The notes under the pieces are model-generated. The model ran no database searches and had not been told where the DNA came from. It saw nothing but the letters and a program-made list of their open reading frames with translations. Source: an uncultured Pseudanabaenaceae cyanobacterium (GTDB lineage: Bacteria > Cyanobacteriota > Cyanobacteriia > PCC-9006 > JAAUQQ01). Taken from it: DNA of 64,000 bases. Location: positions 576 to 64,575 of the forward strand of contig CALECT010000032.1 of NCBI GenBank assembly GCA_937949725.1. The letters are read 5' to 3'. Positions within the stretch are counted from its first letter, which is position 1. Every line of letters starts with the position of its first letter. This document shows positions 272-25,701 of this stretch, piece after piece. The position numbers were made by a program, and so were the translations under genes.

Positions 272-709
272 ATGACTGATCCTGTGACGATGGCTGCTGT
301 AGGAATAGCAACCCTAGCATTTCAAAAATTTGTCGAGGCTGGAGCTGGCGAACTGGCAAAGAAATTCACAGATGCTGGCGTTGAGAAGATTGATGTGCTG
401 TGGCAGAAGATTCGCGAGAAGCTGTGGGGCCAGTCGCCGCAGGTGAATGATGCGCTGATTTTGGCGGAGGGCGGTGATGATGCTGCGCTGGATAGGATCG
501 CCAGCTATTTGAATGTGGAGATGGATAAGGATGAGGTGTTTGCTCAGGAGCTACAGCAGCTAGCCCATGAGATTACGCTGACTCAGAAGCAGGGGGATGG
601 TTCCCAGATTCAGAACAATTTTGGTGGCACCAATTTCCAGAATCAGATTTCGGGTGGCACGGTTAATCAGGGCACGATCAATATCAATCAGGGACCGAGC
701 AAGGCTTAG
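272..709 (+). CDS. Bell/HeLo-like helical effector with C-terminal N/Q/G-rich amyloid-like (BASS-type) motif
   Basis: Probable start is ATG at 272 (MTDPVTMAAVGIATLAFQKFVEAGAGELAKKF..LWQKIREKL). The C-terminus is QIQNNFGGTNFQNQISGGTVNQGTININQ. It lies directly upstream of an NB-ARC remnant. Confidence 0.7.
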   Translation: MTDPVTMAAVGIATLAFQKFVEAGAGELAKKFTDAGVEKIDVLWQKIREKLWGQSPQVNDALILAEGGDDAALDRIASYLNVEMDKDEVFAQELQQLAHEITLTQKQGDGSQIQNNFGGTNFQNQISGGTVNQGTININQGPSKA

Positions 710-1012
710 CTGGAGGCGGAGGGTTGGAAACCTCCAGAGTCAATCTCCTCACAATTCAACGTGCCCTATGCTCGCAATCCGTTTTTTACGGGGCGGGACC
801 AGGTTCTGCTGGACTTGCATGGGGCGTTGCGGGGCGAGGGGGCGGCGGCGCTGAGTCAGTCGATTCGCGGTTTGGGAGGCATTGGCAAGACCCAGACGGC
901 GGTGGAGTATGCCTATTGCTATGGGCAGGGGACGGATGCGGTTTATGACTGGGTGTTTTGGGTGCGGGCTGAGCCGGGCACAGGATTTTGGTGCGATTGC
1001 TCAGATCGATAG
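710..1012 (+). pseudogene. Truncated, frameshifted NB-ARC (NLR-type STAND ATPase) remnant
   Basis: FNVPYARNPFFTGRDQVL...GLGGIGKTQTAVEYAY...VFWVRAE (Walker A). The next NB-ARC-like segment, QDFGAIAQI, is in another frame near 980-1007, then homology ends at AT-rich DNA. Confidence 0.8.
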
Positions 1013-1915: not shown

Positions 1916-4297
1916 CTAACGCCCCAACAACAACGCCTCCGCCCCCGCCCGATCCACCGGCCGCGAAAACAAATACCCCTGCCCAAACCCACAACCCATC
2001 TCCACCAACTGAGCCAACTGCCCCTCCGTCTCAATCCCCTCCGCGATCGCCGTCAACCCCAACCCCTCACTCAACCCCACCATCGTCCGCGTCACCTGAT
2101 CCTGCCCCGGCTGCAAATCCATCACAAACGACCGATCAATCTTCAACGTATTCACCGGAAACTGATGCAAATAACTCAGCGACGAATACCCCGTCCCAAA
2201 ATCATCCAAACTCAAATGCACCCCCAACCCCCGCAACGCCTCCAACCGCGCCTTAAGAACCGCAGTCGCCTCAATCAACACCGTCTCCGTCATCTCTAAC
2301 TTAATGCAACTCGGCGGCAACCCACTCTCCGCCAACAACTGCCCCACCTGCCCCACAAAATCCGCCTGCAACAACTGCCGCCCCGAGACATTAATACTCA
2401 TCATCAACGACTCATCCCCCAGTTGCTGATGCCACAGCTTCAACTGCTCACAAGCCGATCGCAACACCCAACTCCCCAACGGAATAATCAACCCCGTCTC
2501 CTCCGCCACTGGGATAAACTCCACCGGCTCAATCCTTCCCCGTAGCTCATGTTGCCAACGCAACAAGGCCTCAAACCCCACAATCTCCCGATTCGCCAAA
2601 CTCACAATTGGCTGATAATGCAGCTCCAACGCTGGCACCATTGGAGCTCCTTCCCCTGCCATCGCACCCCGTGAATGCCAAGCCTGCTGAATAGATCGCC
2701 GCAGCCCCGTCTCCAAGCCATGGCGAGCCATCACCCGCTCATGCATCGCTTGATCAAACACCGCGATCTTCTCATCCGAAAGCGTTTGCTTCGCCTGGTA
2801 CATGGCAATATCGGCGTCCCGCAAAATCTCCTCAGGATCCTGGTAGCGATCGCCACCATAGGCAATTCCCACACTCGTCGTCGCAAACAGGGAATGATCG
2901 CCCAACTCGAACGGCATCGAGAACTGCTCCACAATACGCTTCAAGACCCCCTGGGCTCCCGACTGTCGAGAATACCCCTCTAGCAAAATTGCAAATTCAT
3001 CCCCCCCCAGGCGAGCCAGCACAGCACTGTCAGGCAAACAGCTCTTAAGACGATGGGCGATCGCCACCAATAGCTGATCACCCACACTGTGGCCCCAACT
3101 GTCATTGACTAGCTTGAAGTGATCCACATCCAGAAAAACAACCGCAAACGACTCTGAAGGAGGCCTTTCTAGCTGAGCCTGAATCCTGGCCTCAATCCGT
3201 GACAGCAGCGTTGCCCGGTTATAGAGCCCTGTTAGCAAATCACGCTGAGCCTGGTGGCGGAGTTGGGCCGTGGCACGACTGCTTTCCGTCGTAATACTCG
3301 CCAAATGGGCAGCGGTTTTAATCAGCTGGTGATGGAACTGCAACGGTGCACAGGCAGAGCGATGGGACAGAGCCATGCTGCCCAAAACCTCCCCCGTCTT
3401 GGAAAAAAAAGGCGTGGACCAACAGGAATGAATGTCGTGCTGCTTGGCGAAAGCTTTAAAGGGAGCCCAGAGTGGATCTTTGGCAATATCTGTGACAAAA
3501 ACGGGCTCCTTGCGATGCAGGGCCGTACCGCAAGAGGCCACGCCCTCCCCAATGGTCAATCCATCGATCGCGTCATTCCACTCCTGGGGGAACGTGGGCG
3601 CTGCCCCAGCCACCATCTTGGTGCCTGATTCATCCAGCAACATGATGGAACAGAGGCTGCCCGGTGACTGGGCTTCAATCAATAAACAGAGGCTGCTGAG
3701 GATGTTCTGTAGAGAGTCCCCCGCAGCCAATTGCTCCAATATCTTGCTCTGGGTTGCTAGCAGGCCTTCAGAACGCGATCGCTGAATAGCAGTGGCCAGC
3801 AAATGCGCCACGGACTGCAAAAACGGTAGCTCACTACTGCCCAATTGAGACTCGGTGCCGTAAAGCTCAATGGCAGCTAACAACTCTTGATCAGCACCCA
3901 GAACCGGAATGAGGAAGCCTGTCTTGCACTCTGCTGGCGCTAAAATCGTAGTCCAAGCTTCTGGCGAACGCTGATGGGAGCTTTTGAGAGAAAACGGCTG
4001 TTTGCGTTGCTTAAGACTGTTAATCCAGGGAGCCTCAGCGCCACTAAATGAAGTCGGGAGCTGCTGTGCTTTGAGGTTGTCGGTGACCGAAATGCATTTG
4101 AGCGTGAGATTGTCAGACAGCATCTGCCAGCAGCGGCAGTAGGGCATTCCCAGAACCGTCTTGAATGTTGTGGCGATCGCCTCAAATAGCGCTGCGATGC
4201 CAGTATGGCTGAGCGCTTGCTGGGCTAAGAGTTGCAGGGCATCTTGCTGGCTAATGGGCTCTGTGCCGACAATCTGACGAGGTAGAGGCTGCAACAT
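1916..4297 (-). CDS. GAF-GAF-GGDEF-EAL diguanylate cyclase/phosphodiesterase
   Basis: DLLTGLYNR, intact GGDEF, FEALLRW and DDFGTGYSSL, with two N-terminal GAF-like regions. ATG at 4297 is preferred over TTG at 4333. Confidence 0.95.
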   Translation of the reverse strand: MLQPLPRQIVGTEPISQQDALQLLAQQALSHTGIAALFEAIATTFKTVLGMPYCRCWQMLSDNLTLKCISVTDNLKAQQLPTSFSGAEAPWINSLKQRKQPFSLKSSHQRSPEAWTTILAPAECKTGFLIPVLGADQELLAAIELYGTESQLGSSELPFLQSVAHLLATAIQRSRSEGLLATQSKILEQLAAGDSLQNILSSLCLLIEAQSPGSLCSIMLLDESGTKMVAGAAPTFPQEWNDAIDGLTIGEGVASCGTALHRKEPVFVTDIAKDPLWAPFKAFAKQHDIHSCWSTPFFSKTGEVLGSMALSHRSACAPLQFHHQLIKTAAHLASITTESSRATAQLRHQAQRDLLTGLYNRATLLSRIEARIQAQLERPPSESFAVVFLDVDHFKLVNDSWGHSVGDQLLVAIAHRLKSCLPDSAVLARLGGDEFAILLEGYSRQSGAQGVLKRIVEQFSMPFELGDHSLFATTSVGIAYGGDRYQDPEEILRDADIAMYQAKQTLSDEKIAVFDQAMHERVMARHGLETGLRRSIQQAWHSRGAMAGEGAPMVPALELHYQPIVSLANREIVGFEALLRWQHELRGRIEPVEFIPVAEETGLIIPLGSWVLRSACEQLKLWHQQLGDESLMMSINVSGRQLLQADFVGQVGQLLAESGLPPSCIKLEMTETVLIEATAVLKARLEALRGLGVHLSLDDFGTGYSSLSYLHQFPVNTLKIDRSFVMDLQPGQDQVTRTMVGLSEGLGLTAIAEGIETEGQLAQLVEMGCGFGQGYLFSRPVDRAGAEALLLGR

Positions 4298-4866
4298 GGT
4301 TGATGGTGTGCTCACAAATTCACTTTCAAACAAGGCCTGAGCTAAACGGTCACGATAATGTCATTGTTCAACCATATGTTGCCCGTCATCTAGGCTGAAT
4401 CTCCTTTAAAGAATCAACCTAACTCCTAAGTATCAGGGAAATAATGTCATCGATATATGACCTAGAGAATGTTGTTGCAGGCCAACAAGTGCAATTCTCT
4501 CATTTATAGTGTTGCAGCACCATCCATTCACACAGATGGCAATAGACAGGGTTTAAGTCGTGAATCTTATAACCTAAAACAGCGATAAATTTACGCAATT
4601 CTGGATTAAATAGAGCTGTTTTTATACTTTGTTTTGATAAGTGCTTTGCCTGATGTATTTACCTAAGGTAAGAGAAAGTAGCGGAAAGTTGTAGGAGCAA
4701 TTTTAGAAGCTTTGATGTTTACTTAAATAGTTGGCTATGCAGAAAATGTTGAGGATGTAGTCCCGAGCGACCTAGCTCCCGTGGAGCCGTTTGACTTCGT
4801 TCTGAAACGGTACGAGCCATTCTGGGAGAGAACTGTAGTCATTCCCCAGCAAAAAGGACGACCCAA

Positions 4867-6380: not shown

Positions 6381-9300
6381 ATGGATCGCCGCCAGTCGCT
6401 GATCTACCCCATTATATTTTTAGGAGCCTTGGGCAAGTCCGATGGTGCCATCGCTCAGGTTCTGAGCGATGGCACCATGGCTATGCCGACCTCCGTGCTG
6501 ACCTTGGGTAGCAACAGCACGATTACGGGTGGTACGGCGGTTAACAACAATCTTTTCCATAGCTTTTCTCAATTCTCCATCCTGCCTGGGAGCCTGGCGA
6601 CTTTTAATAGTGCGCCCAATATTGAAGTCATTTTTGCGCGGGTTACAGGCAACAATCCCAGCAGTATTCAGGGTGGGATTGTTGTGCCTGGAGCAACTGA
6701 TTTATTCCTGCTGAACCCTGCTGGTGTGGAATTTTCCAACGGGGCTACTTTAAGCTTGGGTGGCTCATTGTTTGTGACCACGGCTGAGAGGCTTGACTTT
6801 GCAGGGGGAGGTAGCTTTAGCGCGGCAGCTGGAGCCCTCAATGACCCCTTGCTGAATGTCAATGTCCCCAGTGGGTTGCAGTGGGGAGCCCAGGCTGCGG
6901 GCCTATCGCTTTCCAATCTTGCTGGGACTTATGGGGGGGGGCAAGATTTTCATCTCTTGGGTGGACCTGTTACGCTCGACAATATCCAGCTCGCTTTCGG
7001 AAGCCGGAATTTCTCAGCAGGAGCGGTGGGCCCGAATAGCCGGGTGGGGCTCGTGAGCAGTAATAGCACTGCCCAGCTTGAGAGCTTGAGTGCAGATTAC
7101 AGTGCCGTCACAGCTTTTGAAGACATCACGCTCAGCAATGGAACTGAGCTTGACACATCATCAGCTGCCATTCCTGGCAGTATCCGCTTGCAAGGGCGCC
7201 AAGTGAACCTTTTGGATGGGGGTCGCCTGAGTACGGAAACCTCGGGATCTTCAGCTTCGGGAGATATTGAGATTAATGCTTCTGAGTCTTTCTTGGCTCA
7301 AGGGGGGCGCAGTAATGGATCTCACAGTCTGACGGTGGGAACTCTGGCTGGTTCTACTGGATCTGGAGGACGTTTATTGATTAATGCTCCCTCTGTGACC
7401 TTGGCAGATGGCGTATTGGTTTATGCCGATACGCTTAGCTCTGGCAATGGAGGGGTAATTGAAGTCAATGCGTCAGATCTTTTAGAGATTCGAGGAGAGT
7501 TGCCGGGTAACTCCAATCAAGTGAGTTTGCTGGCTGCCATTACAGAGGCTCCGGCGACGGGGGATGGAGGCACATTAGATCTCAATGTCGGGACGCTACG
7601 GCTCTTGGATGGTGGCAGTATTGATGCTCGCAATGTGCTGAATGGTGATGGTGCTTTGATTAATGTCAATGCAACGAACTTGATCGAAATCAGAGGCAGT
7701 AATAGCGATGGTGGGAGCGTTAGCCAAATTTATGGCTATGGGAGCACGGGGAGTAGCGGTGCGGGTGCAACTATTAATCTCACAACCAATCAGCTCTCTC
7801 TTCTAGACGGCGGCATCATTGATATCAGCCCCAGAGGGGCTGGCAGGGGGGGGGAGCTGAACATCAATGCCCAGGACATCCTGATTCAAGGGACTGGCCC
7901 CACTATGGGCAGCGGAATCATGGCTTTGGTGGATAGTGGTCAGGGCGGTAATGGGGGGGACATTAACATCACGACTGCTGGCCTAAACTTGCTGGACGGC
8001 GGGGCAATTTTGATGGGTGCGGACCAGGCTGTGACGGGAGGAAACCTGTCGATTCAAGCAACGGATCTCCTGGTGGATGGATCGGGTCAAGCCGGAAATG
8101 GGCAAACCTCCACTAGCCGTATTCTCAATCAAGCCACTTTGGGAACCAGCGGTGCTGTGGTGATTAATGCGACGGATCTAGATGTGACAGGTGGGGGGAT
8201 TATTGCAAGCTATCTCCAGGGGACTGGCACAGCAGGACCGCTGAGCATCACGGGCGATCGCATCACCATTGCCGGAGATAACCAAAGCTTTAGTCGTATT
8301 GAGGCCCCAGACCTCAGCGGGAGCGGAGGCAACAATGGCGATCTAACAATCACAGCAAATCAGAGCTTGAGCTTGGTCGATGGTGGCAGAATTCTTTCCC
8401 AGGTTAGCGGCTCGACCACAGCCGGAACTCTATCCATTTCTGCTGGGGATTTACAGGTGAGGGGCCAGGGCCAGATCAATAGCCAAATCGCGACCCTGGC
8501 AACTAACGGAGCCCAGGGGAGCAACATCAACATCAATGCTCCCAGTTTGACCTTGGATGACGGAGGACAAATTGTCTCCCAGGCGACCAATGGAGGACGG
8601 GGAGGAGATATTGGAATTACCAGCAATGCTCTTAATATTCTCAACACCACAGGCGATCCCAACCGTTTGAGCGAAATCCTGGTTCAGGGGAACGGAGGGC
8701 AAGCAGGCAACGCGACGATTACAACCGATGCGCTGCAAGTGACCCAGAGCAGCCGCATTCGCCTGTTAGGGGATAACGGTTCTACAGGCAGCAATTTAAC
8801 TGTCGCTGCAAATACCTTGGCCTTGGATGGCGGTGTCATTCAAAGTCAGATGAATGCTGCGACGGGGGGCAATATTGATTTGGCGATCGCCAATGGAATT
8901 GCGATCGATAATGGTGCTGAAATCAAGACCGAATTAGCAAACGGTGCCAATGGCGGCAATTTGACGATTACAACGACAGGTGACATCACGGCTTCTGGTA
9001 ATAGCGATATTTACACCAGCGTTAACGGAGCTCAAGGCGGTAATGTCGCCGTTACTGCCAATGCTTTGGTGGATTTAGAAGTTAGGGCAGCTTTGACACC
9101 CGAGAATGATTTGGTGTCTGGAGGCAATTTATCGCTAGTTCTGACCGCTCCTCCGCCTGTCGATCCTCCAATTGAGCCACCTGTAGACCCACCGATTGAA
9201 CCTCCGGCTAATCCGCCTGTGGAGCCACCTGTGGAGCCACCTGTTGTTCCCCCGGTCGAGCCACCTATTGTTCCTTCGGTTGAGTCACCTCCGCCCATCC

Positions 9301-9755
9301 TTCCTGCATTTCCCAATGGATTAAGCCCTGCAGCTTTGGCCCAACTTGCAGCTGCGACGCTAGCCCAGTCTCAGGAAGAGTCGAGCGGGAATAGCGATGA
9401 GGTGGCGGCCGCATTACGAAACTCCGCTGCGATTCAAGATGCAGAGCTTGCACCAGGCTGTATTGCTGGGCCAGACAACCGCTTTGTGCGAACTGGCAAA
9501 GGCGGCTTGCCCGATAATCCCAGCCATGTGCGATCGTCGGTTCCCCTATGGCAGGATGGCGCAGCAGCCCAGGGTCGCTTGGCCCAAGTACAGCCAGAAT
9601 CTCCCCAGGCAGAATGGTCTGCTGCGTCAGCGCTCCCCGAAGCTGCCCCACCTTTGGCGGAAGCCCAGGGCTGGACAATGAATGACAGTGGCCAAGTGCA
9701 GTTGTTAGCGGAGGCCCCCTTGCCGGTTAAGGCTGCGGGTTGTGGTTTGTCCTAG
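6381..9755 (+). CDS. Filamentous-haemagglutinin-like (TpsA) exoprotein
   Basis: TPS domain (NLFHSFSQFS, ARVTG, LFLLNPAG), G/N/S/T-rich beta-helix repeats, and the cyanobacterial C-terminal motifs FVRTGKGGLP and EAQGW. Confidence 0.9.
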   Translation: MDRRQSLIYPIIFLGALGKSDGAIAQVLSDGTMAMPTSVLTLGSNSTITGGTAVNNNLFHSFSQFSILPGSLATFNSAPNIEVIFARVTGNNPSSIQGGIVVPGATDLFLLNPAGVEFSNGATLSLGGSLFVTTAERLDFAGGGSFSAAAGALNDPLLNVNVPSGLQWGAQAAGLSLSNLAGTYGGGQDFHLLGGPVTLDNIQLAFGSRNFSAGAVGPNSRVGLVSSNSTAQLESLSADYSAVTAFEDITLSNGTELDTSSAAIPGSIRLQGRQVNLLDGGRLSTETSGSSASGDIEINASESFLAQGGRSNGSHSLTVGTLAGSTGSGGRLLINAPSVTLADGVLVYADTLSSGNGGVIEVNASDLLEIRGELPGNSNQVSLLAAITEAPATGDGGTLDLNVGTLRLLDGGSIDARNVLNGDGALINVNATNLIEIRGSNSDGGSVSQIYGYGSTGSSGAGATINLTTNQLSLLDGGIIDISPRGAGRGGELNINAQDILIQGTGPTMGSGIMALVDSGQGGNGGDINITTAGLNLLDGGAILMGADQAVTGGNLSIQATDLLVDGSGQAGNGQTSTSRILNQATLGTSGAVVINATDLDVTGGGIIASYLQGTGTAGPLSITGDRITIAGDNQSFSRIEAPDLSGSGGNNGDLTITANQSLSLVDGGRILSQVSGSTTAGTLSISAGDLQVRGQGQINSQIATLATNGAQGSNININAPSLTLDDGGQIVSQATNGGRGGDIGITSNALNILNTTGDPNRLSEILVQGNGGQAGNATITTDALQVTQSSRIRLLGDNGSTGSNLTVAANTLALDGGVIQSQMNAATGGNIDLAIANGIAIDNGAEIKTELANGANGGNLTITTTGDITASGNSDIYTSVNGAQGGNVAVTANALVDLEVRAALTPENDLVSGGNLSLVLTAPPPVDPPIEPPVDPPIEPPANPPVEPPVEPPVVPPVEPPIVPSVESPPPILPAFPNGLSPAALAQLAAATLAQSQEESSGNSDEVAAALRNSAAIQDAELAPGCIAGPDNRFVRTGKGGLPDNPSHVRSSVPLWQDGAAAQGRLAQVQPESPQAEWSAASALPEAAPPLAEAQGWTMNDSGQVQLLAEAPLPVKAAGCGLS
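9150..9296 (+). repeat. Coding 12-nt-period repeat encoding a PP(V/I)(E/D) linker
   Basis: PPVDPPIEPPVDPPIEPPANPPVEPPVEPPVVPPVEPP within the TpsA gene. Confidence 0.85.
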
Positions 9756-22344: not shown

Positions 22345-25300
22345 TTAAGAGTCCTCGGCCTTGCGAATGTCGGCTTCCTGCTCACGGACTTTTTTGAGGA
22401 CAGCGGTGACGATTTTGCCGCCAGGGATGGTCTCTACAGCAGCTTCGCCTGCGGTTTGGACGATTTCGGTGATGCGTTGAAGGCGGCTGGGGGGTAGTGC
22501 TTTGCGGACGTGTTCGGCTTTTTCGTCTTCGGTGGCAAGGGGGTTGTCTTTGGCGAGTTGAATCAGTAAGTCTTTGATTTCTTCGGCGGCTTCGGCTGGT
22601 GTTTTGGGTTCGGGGTTGTTGGTGATGTAGATGTTCTCGGCTTGGTAGACGACGCCACCGCTAACGTCAGCTTGGTAGCCTTTTGCATTGCCAGAGTTGT
22701 TTTGAGTAAATTTGCTAGTCATGATGTCTTGCCGGTTAGAGGAATTGGGGAAGTCGGGATTTAAGGGCTCTGTCACGTCAGAAATAAGCCGACGCACATT
22801 GACCATTTGATAACTTTTGGAGCATTGAATTTCATATTGTTTGTCGGTTTCAAATTGCTGAAGGATTGAGAGGGGATAAAGAACAGGGGTTTGTTGGCCT
22901 TTGCATTTGGAGCAGTTGCAAGGGATAAGTTCTTCAACTTGAATGTTGGGATAGCTCCTGTGGATTTTGTAGATTTCGCGGCGAATCCAGTCGAGGAGTG
23001 TTTTTTGTTGGGCTCCGGCGACGCGGATGGAGAGTTCGCTTTTGTTGTAGTTCTCGATGACTTCGGCGCGGGCGTTGCCGTGGCGAAGAACCACGCCGCT
23101 CTTCCAGACCAGGCCCTGAACGTTATCGTCGGGCTCGATTAGTTCGTGCATTTCGACGATGAGGCGGGTGATAAGGCCTTTGGGCATGAATTCATAGGTG
23201 TAGCGGAGGATGAGGTTGTTGGTTTCTTCCCAGTGGTAGTCGGGGCGATCGATGCTGAGCAGGCTGGGGGCGATGAAGCTGCCTTCGCGCTCGCCACGCA
23301 GGGGGTAGCAGATGGCGAATTTCTGCATGAGGGCGAGGAGTTCGTCTTGGACATCGGCGTATTCGCTACCGCTCCAGATTTCGTCGAGGTCTTCGCGGCT
23401 GAAACGGCCCAGGTCGTCTTTGATCTTTTGGCTGTCGGTGACTTTGTAGACGGCATTGGTGGCCCATGTGGGGCTGAGGATGACGTAGTTTTTGAGGCCG
23501 AGGTCGCTTTGGAAGTGGAGGCAGATGCCTAGCTCGTGGAGCTGGCTGCTGATGGTGAGGGCTTCGTTTTTATCAGTGATGCCTTCTCGATGGCAAAGTG
23601 CTAGGTAGTTCGCCACTTCGATGTATTGGGCTTTTGGGTTTTTGCTGTAGTTTTCCAGGGCGTAGCGGACTTTGGCCCATTTGTGAGGCCAAGGGTCATT
23701 CACTCCGTCGAGTTGAGTCATACGTTGCTGGATGTGGTCGCGCAGTTGGTCTAGTCCGGTGTTGTCAGCGAGGTCTACAGAGATGCTTTGATTGATGAGG
23801 TTGGGGAACTCTTTGCGCAAGCTGCCTTCATCAATTTCGCATTGGCGCTTGCTTTTTTCGTTTTTGATTAAGAGGACGGGGCTGTTGTCGCCTAGGAGGC
23901 GGATGATGTTGAGCCAATAGTAGACGCTGCTGAGGTTGAGGTCGCGGCGGCTGTCGATGACGAGGGCATAGAGGGAGCGGCGGGTGAGGAAGAATTGGTG
24001 GGTGGCATGGTAGATTTCTTGGCCGCCGAAGTCCCAGATGTTGATTTTGAAGAGGTCGCCGTTAGGTTGATCGAAGCTGATGCGGTTGACTTCGATGCCT
24101 TCGGTGGATTTTTCGGGGTTTTTGCTGTCTTCGGGGTTGAGTTCGTAGAAGGGATATTGTAGCTTTTTAGCCAGTGTGGTTTTACCGACGCTGCCTTCAC
24201 CTACAATTAGAAGTTTGGCTTCGCTGAGGGGGGCGGCGTCTTCAGCAGTCGCTTTGAAGTAGAAATTAGTGAGGGTTTTTAGGTCACTGGGCTCTTTGAA
24301 TAGAAGTCCGAGTCCGTATTGGTCAGGTTGGGTTAGAAGTTCGATAGGAACGGAGATTTGATTGCCTTGGAGAGCTAGTTTGAAGTTAGTTGTGCAATCC
24401 TTGGTCCACTGCGGCAGAGAAGAGATTTGGTTCGATCTTAAGTCAAGTGTCTCTAAGCTCTGGAGATTCGCGATCACTGCAGGAATCTCTGAGATTTCGT
24501 TCTGCCATAATGCAAGTGTTTCTAAGCTCTGGAGATTCTCAATCGTCTTAGGAATTTCCGTGATTTTGTTTCCACCTAAGAAGAGACCCTGAAGTTCTTC
24601 AAGATGAGAAATCGCTCCAGGAATTTCTGAGATGCAATTACGATTTAAGTTTAAAGTGTTAAGGTTACATAATTGAGCAATTATCTCAGGGATATTTGAA
24701 ATTTTATTTTGCCATAGGAGAAGAGTCTTAAGGGGGGGTAGCTGGGTTATACCTTCTGTTATCTTGGATATATTATTATTCCCTAGGTTAAGAAACTGAA
24801 TGTTTTTTAGATGAGAAATTTCCTTTGGTATATCACTAATTCGATTGTCTCCTAAACAAAGAGCATGGAGGTTTTCTAGTTGGGAAATCCTCTGAGGTAT
24901 ATGGTTGATCTGATTATATTCCAAGTTAAGAATATGAAGGTTACGCAAATGAAAAACTGCTTCGGGGATTTGGGAAATCTTATTATGACTAATGTTTAAA
25001 ATCTGTAGTTCATGAAGATTCTTGATTGAGTCCGGAATCTGGCATATCTCATTCATGCCTAAGTCAAGAATTTGTAGTCTCTGGATGTTTAGAACTTCTT
25101 CCGAAATATCCTCGATATTGTTATTGCCTAGTTCAACTATATGTAAGTTTTCAAGCTTTGCAATTTCTCGTGTAATCTCACGTATTTGATTTGAAGCTAA
25201 ATCGAGATTTTGCAAGCACTGAAGTTGAACGATCACGTCTGGAAGAAATGAAAATCGATTGAAACTTGCATTTAGTATACGCAAATTTTCGAGTTGAGTT

Positions 25301-25701
25301 ATTTCATTCGGTATCTCCTCTAACTCAATCTGAACTAGCTCAAGTTCTTCTAGACTGACAATGTCAAATATCTTATCCAACTTAAGGAAAGGATTTCCAC
25401 TTAATCTGAGCACCTTCAGATTTTCTAGTAGTAGTAACTCTTTCGGAAGCTCTCTCAAATAATTTCCAATGGGCCAAGCACTATACTTTGAACTGACAGG
25501 ATGGATGTTGGCCTGCCAGCTATCTCGTTTATTGTGCTTTCCTAGAATCAGCGTCTCCAGCCGCTCCAGTTTACCAATTTCTCTCGGCAGCTCCTCCAGC
25601 CCCAACCCCGCCAAATCCAGCTCAGTCCACCCCTCATCCGCGGCCCGATCAATCAACCGCAGCAAATCCGCCTTCGTCTTCACCTCATGGCTCGCCATCA
25701 A
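22345..25701 (-). CDS. Roco protein: LRR-Roc-COR with C-terminal amyloid-like motif and helical domain
   Basis: Many 23-aa LRRs, Roc motifs GEGSVGKT, IWDFGGQEIYHATHQFFLT and NEKS, COR motifs LHELGICLHF and MPKGLITRLIV, and tail FTQNNSGNAKGYQADVSGGVVYQAENIYI. Confidence 0.93.
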   Translation of the reverse strand: MMASHEVKTKADLLRLIDRAADEGWTELDLAGLGLEELPREIGKLERLETLILGKHNKRDSWQANIHPVSSKYSAWPIGNYLRELPKELLLLENLKVLRLSGNPFLKLDKIFDIVSLEELELVQIELEEIPNEITQLENLRILNASFNRFSFLPDVIVQLQCLQNLDLASNQIREITREIAKLENLHIVELGNNNIEDISEEVLNIQRLQILDLGMNEICQIPDSIKNLHELQILNISHNKISQIPEAVFHLRNLHILNLEYNQINHIPQRISQLENLHALCLGDNRISDIPKEISHLKNIQFLNLGNNNISKITEGITQLPPLKTLLLWQNKISNIPEIIAQLCNLNTLNLNRNCISEIPGAISHLEELQGLFLGGNKITEIPKTIENLQSLETLALWQNEISEIPAVIANLQSLETLDLRSNQISSLPQWTKDCTTNFKLALQGNQISVPIELLTQPDQYGLGLLFKEPSDLKTLTNFYFKATAEDAAPLSEAKLLIVGEGSVGKTTLAKKLQYPFYELNPEDSKNPEKSTEGIEVNRISFDQPNGDLFKINIWDFGGQEIYHATHQFFLTRRSLYALVIDSRRDLNLSSVYYWLNIIRLLGDNSPVLLIKNEKSKRQCEIDEGSLRKEFPNLINQSISVDLADNTGLDQLRDHIQQRMTQLDGVNDPWPHKWAKVRYALENYSKNPKAQYIEVANYLALCHREGITDKNEALTISSQLHELGICLHFQSDLGLKNYVILSPTWATNAVYKVTDSQKIKDDLGRFSREDLDEIWSGSEYADVQDELLALMQKFAICYPLRGEREGSFIAPSLLSIDRPDYHWEETNNLILRYTYEFMPKGLITRLIVEMHELIEPDDNVQGLVWKSGVVLRHGNARAEVIENYNKSELSIRVAGAQQKTLLDWIRREIYKIHRSYPNIQVEELIPCNCSKCKGQQTPVLYPLSILQQFETDKQYEIQCSKSYQMVNVRRLISDVTEPLNPDFPNSSNRQDIMTSKFTQNNSGNAKGYQADVSGGVVYQAENIYITNNPEPKTPAEAAEEIKDLLIQLAKDNPLATEDEKAEHVRKALPPSRLQRITEIVQTAGEAAVETIPGGKIVTAVLKKVREQEADIRKAEDS

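Follow-up and report, generated by a model that had tools for sequence, protein, structure and literature searches.

Amyloid signaling in bacteria has so far been tied to NOD-like receptors (NLRs) and to one tested sensor of TPR-GreA/B-C-PIN architecture. The motifs BASS1-10 are about 25 amino acids (aa) long, rich in Q, N, G, V and I and poor in K, P and L, and BASS is defined by a motif shared between the C-terminus of a Bell protein and the N-terminus of the adjacent NLR (Dyrka et al. 2020, bioRxiv 10.1101/2020.01.06.895854). The tested non-NLR sensor is Agp of E. coli (TPR-GreA/B-C-PIN), which activates the Bell-like protein Bab through BASS11, and the pair protects E. coli against phage T5 (Ibarlosa et al. 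2024, bioRxiv 10.1101/2024.11.07.622273). Roco proteins belong to the prokaryotic LRR-AP-GTPase-COR conflict systems, whose C-terminal position is taken by at least 24 kinds of domain, caspase, TIR and EADs among them, and the idea that Roco is an NLR-like sensor whose effectors at the C-terminus vary has already been published (Kaur et al. 2021, PMC8195603). Bell/NLR motif pairing and Roco conflict systems are each known already. Here we analyze a Roco protein encoded in a stretch of 64,000 nucleotides from an uncultured Pseudanabaenaceae cyanobacterium (contig CALECT010000032.1; the whole stretch is called the window below), which also encodes a small Bell-like protein. The tail of the Roco protein consists of a variable linker, a BASS-type motif of about 30 residues and a C-terminal helical domain (HD) of about 85 residues, and we consider it a little better than an even bet that the motif is an assembly module in Roco signaling.

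The initial annotation of the window had claimed that the Roco tail (...DIMTSKFTQNNSGNAKGYQADVSGGVVYQAENIYITNNPEPKTPAEAAEEIK..., followed by a helical region to the end of the protein) has a motif in common with the C-terminus of the open reading frame (ORF) 272..709, which ends in ...QIQNNFGGTNFQNQISGGTVNQGTININQGPSKA. The two segments are indeed alike to an extent that exceeds chance. Pieces of 45 aa from the two proteins align with a local BLOSUM62 score of 44, which is equalled by composition-matched shuffles in 33 of 20,000 trials when one side is shuffled and in 36 of 20,000 when both are; the 30-aa cores score 42, a value that 66 of 20,000 shuffles attain. The search was extended to the genome of the window (5.24 Mb in 237 contigs, 88% complete), with 125,111 stop-to-stop ORFs for scans with hidden Markov models (HMMs) and 66,538 ORFs of at least 40 aa for pattern scans. 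The motif pattern given in the initial annotation matches three ORFs of the latter set. A scan of the kind that it proposed, with partner domains recorded, uncovers both sensors and effector-like proteins: with an HMM of six seed copies, 11 ORFs score at E <= 0.011, and the next match lies at E 1.1.

The significance of these copies becomes apparent from the Bell-like proteins of other cyanobacteria. A family search returned 30 proteins, 28 of which were aligned; these are stand-alone proteins of 141-163 aa with a conserved N-terminus (MTDP..LTAxAIATLAFQKFvEAGAGELAKKFT) and a C-terminal motif that falls into several subtypes. The window's own is A1; V1 has the consensus QTNYGGTNYQTKTGxDNTNFFGGTH, V2 has QNNxDNAKGWQTKVEGGTAYIGEIHI, and V3 is a further variant. 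Searching genome contigs with the single Bell sequence gave no close relatives. The family alignment as query gave 63 loci in named cyanobacterial genomes, among them Myxacorys, Stenomitos, Pseudanabaena, Egbenema, Phormidesmis and Elainella. Of the 58 loci with a good match to the Bell domain, 25 contain another ORF with the motif, in most cases 4-170 nt further downstream and on the same strand, and at 19 of these 25 the partner ORF has a Walker A motif. Bell protein and partner agree in subtype at 21 of the 22 loci at which both were typed (the exception is L042), and motifs score on average 76 within pairs versus 45.8 between pairs. This pairing bears out the earlier suggestion that the motif is of the Bell/NLR amyloid-signaling type. 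As judged from sequence, the family falls within the operational definition of BASS, being common to a Bell C-terminus and an adjacent NB-ARC or NACHT N-terminus.

The composition of the motif core points the same way. Relative to the genome, N is enriched 3.5x, Q 2.0x, G 1.9x and I 1.6x, while P (0.02x) and L (0.12x) are depleted; V (0.81x) and K (1.05x) deviate from the bias reported for BASS, so that the agreement with the published bias is large but incomplete. In AlphaFold2 (AF2) monomer models the motif is unstructured (pLDDT < 50), which we count as neutral, and a complex prediction with two Roco and two Bell motif copies scored 0.02 against a mark of 0.32, which gave no answer and was used neither way.

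The Roco copy belongs to this family, although not to the subtype of the window's Bell protein. An HMM from four other copies in the genome (C48, C72, C98 and C101) recognizes the Bell copy with E 6.4e-8 but gives the Roco copy merely E 1.3, so the two are sister subtypes rather than one. A profile made solely from 26 V2 Bell C-termini of other genomes, on the other hand, places the Roco tail at the top of the 125,111 ORFs with E 4.8e-6; the N-terminus of the C145 NB-ARC-TPR protein comes second (E 0.004), and the Bell-tail profiles of subtypes V1 and V3 have no match to Roco in this genome. When the tail family is compared with the Bell family by hhalign, only the motif is aligned (probability 93%, E 3.3e-7, 35 columns). 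The V2 match and this alignment together identify the Roco tail as a true member of the motif family. By sequence comparison its motif lies nearest to V2, and the second half of the motif (SGGVVYQAENIYI) resembles A1. A relationship of HD to the Bell helical domain was considered and rejected on the same hhalign result, in which the motif alone was aligned.

A wider view of the family was obtained with a profile of 42 motif copies, scanned against 1.84 billion representative proteins. It matched 227 proteins at E <= 1e-3, and the 150 matches listed were sorted by length and motif position: 24 are small proteins (~140-180 aa) with a C-terminal motif and 18 are small proteins with an N-terminal one; among the long proteins, 43 have it within their first 95 residues and 27 at an internal or C-terminal position; the other 38 are fragments. 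Among the long N-terminal-motif proteins listed, 20 of 43 have NB-ARC and 12 of 43 have NACHT. Domain scans covered the whole internal class of 27, and the architectures among these listed matches include Bell-motif-CHAT, Bell-motif-NB-ARC-TPR, EAD8-motif-NB-ARC-TPR, PNP_UDP-motif-NACHT, PNP_UDP-motif-SEFIR/TIR, TIR-motif-CHAT and three pentapeptide-repeat proteins. Four of the 27 are Roc-COR proteins: P0007, P0094, P0117 and P0160 (LRR-Roc-COR-motif-CHAT). An assignment of TRADD-N to the pentapeptide carriers P0127, P0151 and P0114 was dropped, as Pfam gives pentapeptide repeats alone.

Within the Roco proteins the motif is better preserved than the linker that precedes it. We compared orthologues from eight genomes of the same order and aligned seven Roco tails, in which five motif positions (F71, Q73, N75, Q83 and G88) are invariant and the segment of 18-50 residues from COR-B to the motif cannot be aligned. 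The conservation among orthologues that the initial annotation called for is thus present. The orthologues retain the motif though the domain downstream varies: it is HD in G003, HD2 in G005 and a frameshifted HD in G004, and with CHAT there are three different domains that follow the motif in Roco proteins. The G001 Roco has merely a degenerate stretch ahead of HD2, and that of G002 has GDK repeats ahead of an HD-like domain. HD2, an alternative helical domain at the C-terminus (...LRQIASTFPQDLQDDL...KLKKRLLALA...), stands in other Rocos behind either the motif or a degenerate stretch (loci L065, L066 and L088). In the G004 orthologue (G004:C49; L068/L113), a frameshift separates motif and HD, so that HD is continued in a different frame; a broken gene or an error of assembly may be the cause.

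With 54-69% identity, the last 125 residues of Roco are found again at the C-termini of further proteins: other Rocos, pentapeptide-repeat proteins, one unnamed protein and, on C63, a DUF4926 protein that is 57% identical to the Roco tail. The fused cassette of 125 aa proposed in the initial annotation is therefore real, and it has been shuffled among proteins. In this genome HD is found on four proteins (the present Roco on C32, the C63 DUF4926 protein, C72 and C98), always at the C-terminus and always behind the motif. HD has no Pfam family at E <= 0.1, EAD models included, and no NCBIfam match, and the protein atlas places it in unnamed clusters; fold searches with the Roco tail gave generic helical matches alone (Foldseek best E 1.4, VIA best Z 5.7). 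On C72 (L104) and C98 (L105) a second N/G-rich segment, NNxEGAxIGNFANQxxDNA, stands between motif and HD, and in P0002, P0003, P0005 and P0006 this segment is found beside or in place of the motif; it could represent either a pseudo-repeat or a separate family of motifs. The initial annotation also had the tail module begin at an internal Met (22722). A Met does stand at the start of the motif, but it is a conserved motif residue and is not a start on the Bell side. Separate translation of the tail from this residue (Met 994) was likewise rejected, there being no Shine-Dalgarno-like sequence and no promoter-like site ahead of it. The coordinates of these features are collected in Table 1.

Table 1. 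Features of the Roco gene and of the Bell-like gene with its surroundings, in window coordinates
Feature	Position	Strand	Remarks
Roco gene	22345..25701	-	1118 aa, start TTG 25701; database copy has 1117 aa, start one codon later
Leucine-rich repeats, ~aa 40-470 (approximate limits)	24292..25584	-	Pfam LRR_14, LRR_8, LRR_4, E 1e-40 to 2e-44; limits by sequence reading
Roc GTPase domain, aa 496-615	23857..24216	-	Pfam Roc E 1e-20; P-loop GEGSVGKT and DFGGQ read in the sequence
COR-A, aa 672-815	23257..23688	-	Pfam E 1.2e-40
COR-B, aa 828-975	22777..23220	-	Pfam E 5e-43
Variable linker, COR-B to motif	22723..22776	-	Unalignable among 7 Roco tails
BASS-type motif, aa 994-1033, MTSKFTQNNSGNAKGYQADVSGGVVYQAENIYITNNPEPK	22603..22722	-	V2-like subtype, second half A-type-like
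C-terminal helical domain HD, aa 1034-1118	22348..22602	-	4-5 helix bundle, AF2 pLDDT ~85
Bell-like protein, 145 aa	272..709	+	Member of the stand-alone 141-163 aa family
C-terminal motif of Bell-like protein, subtype A1	593..706	+	HMM and alignment
TAG stop, then in-frame LEAEGWKPPES; GGAGG(8 nt)CCTCC hairpin	707..745	+	Conserved in one same-genus genome
Partner NB-ARC NLR remnant without N-terminal motif	761..1012	+	NCBIfam FxSxx_TPR N-terminus E 1.2e-17, far below cut-off

By Pfam and by the tails of its homologues, the protein has the make-up of a Roco or prokaryotic AP-GTPase, with N-terminal leucine-rich repeats (LRRs), Roc, COR-A, COR-B and a variable C-terminal effector or adaptor. Past residue 975 it has no Pfam match, its last 125 residues have no NCBIfam match, and PADLOC matches neither Roco nor the Bell-like protein. 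At the position of the NKxD guanine-specificity motif of Ras-like GTPases, the Roc domain (~23740-23770, minus strand) reads by eye KNEKS, and the same position reads KNEKQ and RNEKQ in a Roco paralogue and the orthologue P0007.

Motif matching within the genome gives a picture that is different from a simple pairing of the two genes in the window. The motif is present in 11 proteins. Two Rocos, two NB-ARC-TPR proteins and three pentapeptide-repeat proteins are of sensor type, and the Bell protein, an EAD1-CHAT protein, one protein with an unknown domain and the DUF4926-HD protein are effector-like. Twenty adjacent Bell/NLR pairs served as reference; they score 53-135 (median 84.5), with 13-22 identities. 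Nine of the carriers, with unrelated architectures, have subtype A1 in common, and their pairwise scores of 66-117 lie inside this range. The window's Bell protein scores 106 with the C63 DUF4926-HD protein, 97 with C98, 95 (22 identities) with the C101 NB-ARC-TPR protein, whose motif is N-terminal, and 92 with a Roco-CHAT protein on C48. Its score with the Roco of the window is 44 (13 identities), below all 20 of the adjacent pairs. The latter Roco scores 67 with the C145 NLR and 71 (16 identities) with a Bell protein of a same-genus genome (G004, locus L118). Judged by these pairwise scores, the genome seems to contain two motif-matched groups: nine proteins make up an A1 group, and this Roco is joined by the C145 NLR in a V2-like one. 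The 88%-complete assembly yielded no Bell protein with the subtype of the Roco. The Bell protein of the window is more likely served by the A1 carriers (the C101 NLR and the C48 Roco-CHAT) than by this Roco. The specific Roco-Bell pairing of the initial annotation is thus not supported, given the low score and the better partners, and its emphasis on Roco rather than NB-ARC/NACHT proteins is weakened, since the NB-ARC NLRs C101 and C145 bear the motif at their N-termini and an NB-ARC remnant lies behind the Bell gene.

The second Roco (G000:C48:52036-56625; loci L070, L096 and L129; P0160) has 1522-1530 aa, with LRR-Roc-COR-A-COR-B followed by an A1-type motif and a CHAT caspase-like domain, and its motif fits the window's Bell protein far better than that of the window's Roco does. 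A cleavage site for CHAT within the motif was considered and discarded, as by eye the A1 subtype has no conserved basic residue. At G000:C235 (L107), the ORF 54-791 combines an N-terminal motif with an unknown domain of ~190 aa and the adjoining 807-1820 encodes EAD1-motif-CHAT; in G001 (L115), EAD1, the motif and the ~190-aa domain are united in one protein.

The identification of ORF 272..709 as a Bell-like effector is supported by its helical domain, its MTDP N-terminus and its C-terminal motif. AF2 places helices over residues 9-102 (pLDDT ~85), in keeping with the ~100-aa helical domain, hydrophobic N-terminus and acidic residue at position 2-3 of Bell proteins, and the motif is terminal, as in described BASS effectors. 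The protein has no Pfam or NCBIfam match, a PDB profile search gave weak chance helical matches, and the model gave generic helical matches in fold searches (Foldseek best E 0.89, VIA best Z 4.9). With its motif paired with an adjacent NLR elsewhere, the ORF behaves, as far as can be predicted, like a Bell effector. Another, only distantly related Bell-like protein is encoded in the genome (G000:C107:321-824; L110; profile E 2.6e-14); its C-terminal segment is different and charged and lacks a motif of this family.

The partner gene of the window's Bell protein appears to have decayed. In frame past the Bell TAG lies the start of an NB-ARC protein (FNVPYARNPFFTGRDQ...GLGGIGKTQTA), but the likeness to NLRs spans only ~752 to 975 and then stops; the ORF 761..1012 is therefore an NLR remnant that has neither an N-terminal motif nor the C-terminal part. 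Directly after the TAG (707-760, plus strand) there is an in-frame L-x-x-EGW-x-PP, followed by the NB-ARC start without a motif of its own. The same arrangement and DNA (TAGCTGNAGNCGGAGGGNTGGANACCTCCA, with the GGAGG/CCTCC hairpin) stand behind a different Bell paralogue in the same-genus genome (L118, 590-651, minus strand), and the arrangement with the hairpin was found at these two places only. The folding of the hairpin does not surpass that of shuffled sequences (z 0.15 and -1.45). The arrangement could reflect translational coupling, read-through that yields a Bell-motif-NLR fusion, or shared decay.

We propose that the motif is a homotypic assembly module of cross-beta (or beta-arch) type, placed beside COR-B. 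In the solved Roc-COR dimer of C. tepidum, COR-B reportedly joins the two chains, and for this reason we propose that the motif sits beside the chain-joining element, which in NLRs is the NOD. The LRR would sense a ligand, the Roc-COR switch would change state, and the motifs of neighboring chains would then stack. Stacked motifs could activate the attached C-terminal domain by proximity (HD here, CHAT on C48), and could recruit further proteins with a matching motif, possibly free effectors. Nucleation by Roco and amyloid formation, both part of the model in the initial annotation, are putative. A broader form of the proposal is that Roco GTPases are a second, non-STAND class of receptors with amyloid-type templating, the motif following COR-B as it precedes the NOD of NLRs, and that the 11 proteins form one or two motif-matched networks in which each activated sensor might seed Bell, CHAT or HD effectors in trans; this extension we put forward tentatively, at somewhat less than even chance.

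Several observations weigh against the motif being an assembly module in this Roco. It is internal (aa 994-1033 of 1118, between COR-B and the 85-aa domain), whereas described BASS motifs are terminal, and gene fusion may have left behind, as relics, the internal copies amid joined domains (Bell-motif-NB-ARC, Bell-motif-CHAT, PNP_UDP-motif-SEFIR). Compared with the other copies of its genome, that of Roco is divergent, as the E value of 1.3 with the four-copy HMM indicates. Among 24 distinct cyanobacterial Roco tails, drawn from the order plus a sample of 301 cyanobacterial genomes, just four, all of the window's family, contain the motif with E <= 1e-7. The remaining 20 lack it and terminate in TIR, TIR-like, HD-like, HD2 or transmembrane (TM) segments. 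Elsewhere HD follows a different N/G-rich segment or none (P0002, P0003, P0005, P0006 and P0008), and therefore does not need the motif. The genes flanking Roco (Uma2, a VOC-type protein, DUF3747, EamA and DUF559) have no motif. None of six motif strings was found in the texts searched, and the motif is not assigned to any of the numbered families BASS1-11; amyloid formation by the family is a prediction from sequence.

These points lend themselves to another explanation, namely that the motif in Roco is a relic of domain shuffling which acts as a flexible linker only, the coupling to HD being purely covalent. We consider this unlikely, but it stays a serious rival, given how often fused proteins have internal copies and given that HD also occurs without the motif. 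The presence of the motif at domain junctions of many fused architectures fits a relic, as do the many Roco tails that lack it and its stronger divergence compared with COR or HD: identity to Roco orthologues is 48-60% for the motif versus 73% for the whole tail of L067. However, a relic does not readily explain why the five positions stay invariant in seven tails when the preceding linker is unalignable, or why the motif is retained ahead of three different domains. Nor would a passive linker have its subtype shared among unrelated proteins of one genome. Alternatively, the motif may be a non-amyloid regulatory or docking strand of C-terminal modules, either autoinhibitory or forming a small beta-sheet on dimerization, with no templating. 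That all four HD copies in the genome follow the motif is in its favor, as is the short N/Q-rich stretch (...FNQNNY...) that Nostocales-type HD copies retain ahead of their first helix; but the same motif stands ahead of NB-ARC, CHAT, SEFIR/TIR and HEAT and at the free C-end of Bell, and we give a dedicated strand of this kind little credence.

The proposal of the initial annotation that this Roco nucleates, in trans, the amyloid fold of the Bell protein seems improbable to us. The motifs are of the same superfamily, and the Bell protein, if still used, needs a trans activator, since its own NLR has been reduced to a remnant. Against this stand the score of 44, under the minimum of 53 of the adjacent pairs, the better carriers for Bell in the genome (C101, C48, C63 and C98), and the closer match of the Roco motif to the same-genus Bell protein of L118 than to that of its own genome. 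The genes are also unlinked, the sole other motif copy in the window lying 21.6 kb away and being of another subtype. As for a chance likeness of two low-complexity N/Q/G-rich linkers, both segments are compositionally biased and the A1 profile of the genome does not retrieve the Roco copy with significance (E 1.3), but the shuffles, the V2 profile, the hhalign alignment and the conservation among orthologues contradict this explanation so strongly that we regard it as scarcely tenable. An assembly module beside COR-B thus remains the reading we favor.

Two further genes of the window may be mentioned. A protein of 1124 aa (6381-9755, plus strand) has an N-terminal two-partner secretion (TPS) domain, and in the translation of another, of 805 aa (1916-4333, minus strand), GGDEF and EAL signatures are visible.

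In the literature that we searched, BASS or amyloid signaling was not found linked to Roc-COR or Roco proteins; supplementary tables lay outside the search and may list such a link. Papers that contain both sets of words do so in their reference lists alone. If true, the proposal would link a Roc-COR switch of the LRRK2/DAPK type to prion-like signal transfer, and would suggest a simple placement rule, with the motif located beside whatever joins the chains. It would also provide small testable peptide pairs of ~30 residues from one cyanobacterium that is not a pathogen. Moreover, one genome can hold motif-matched sensors and effectors that are not gene neighbors, and searches for adjacent gene pairs would therefore miss such networks.

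As far as the described parts of these systems allow comparison, the family resembles BASS1-10 in its N/Q/G-rich, P/L-poor motif of ~25-30 aa, in the Bell protein of ~145 aa with an adjacent NB-ARC or NACHT protein, in its occurrence in filamentous-type cyanobacteria and in its CHAT and TIR partners. It differs from them in the copy that follows a Roco COR and precedes another domain, with no adjacent partner gene. Agp/Bab supports an assembly role for the Roco motif, because it provides a precedent for a non-NLR sensor with a BASS motif. The likeness is partial: there, too, the sensor is not an NLR and a BASS motif activates a Bell-like effector, but the Roco motif is near the C-terminus, the Bell gene is unlinked and the motif belongs to another sequence family.

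The interchangeable C-terminal domains, and the several paralogues in one genome (HD on C32, CHAT on C48), are like those of the conflict systems of Kaur et al. 2021, and the TIR, HD2 or TM tails of Rocos in other cyanobacteria show the same variety. In that paper (PMC8195603), the word "amyloid" is confined to the reference list, and the section on these systems does not contain a motif between COR and effector. With fungal NWD2/HET-S and other pairs of NLR and amyloid effector, as outlined by Dyrka et al. 2020 and Ibarlosa et al. 2024, the proposed mechanism would share the sequence of receptor oligomerization, templating by a short motif and activation of an effector. The receptor here is of another class and the Roco has no pseudo-repeats, though C72 and C98 hold a second N/G-rich segment, of B type. 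Finally, the EAD principle is that the sensors and effectors of one genome have a small module in common (Kaur et al. 2020, PMC7159879; Kaur et al. 2021), and EAD1, EAD7 and EAD8 co-occur with the motif in the same proteins. Unlike EADs, described as folded helical domains of ~90 aa, the motif is a segment of ~30 aa that is disordered as a monomer; like them, it is common to the sensors and effectors of one genome.

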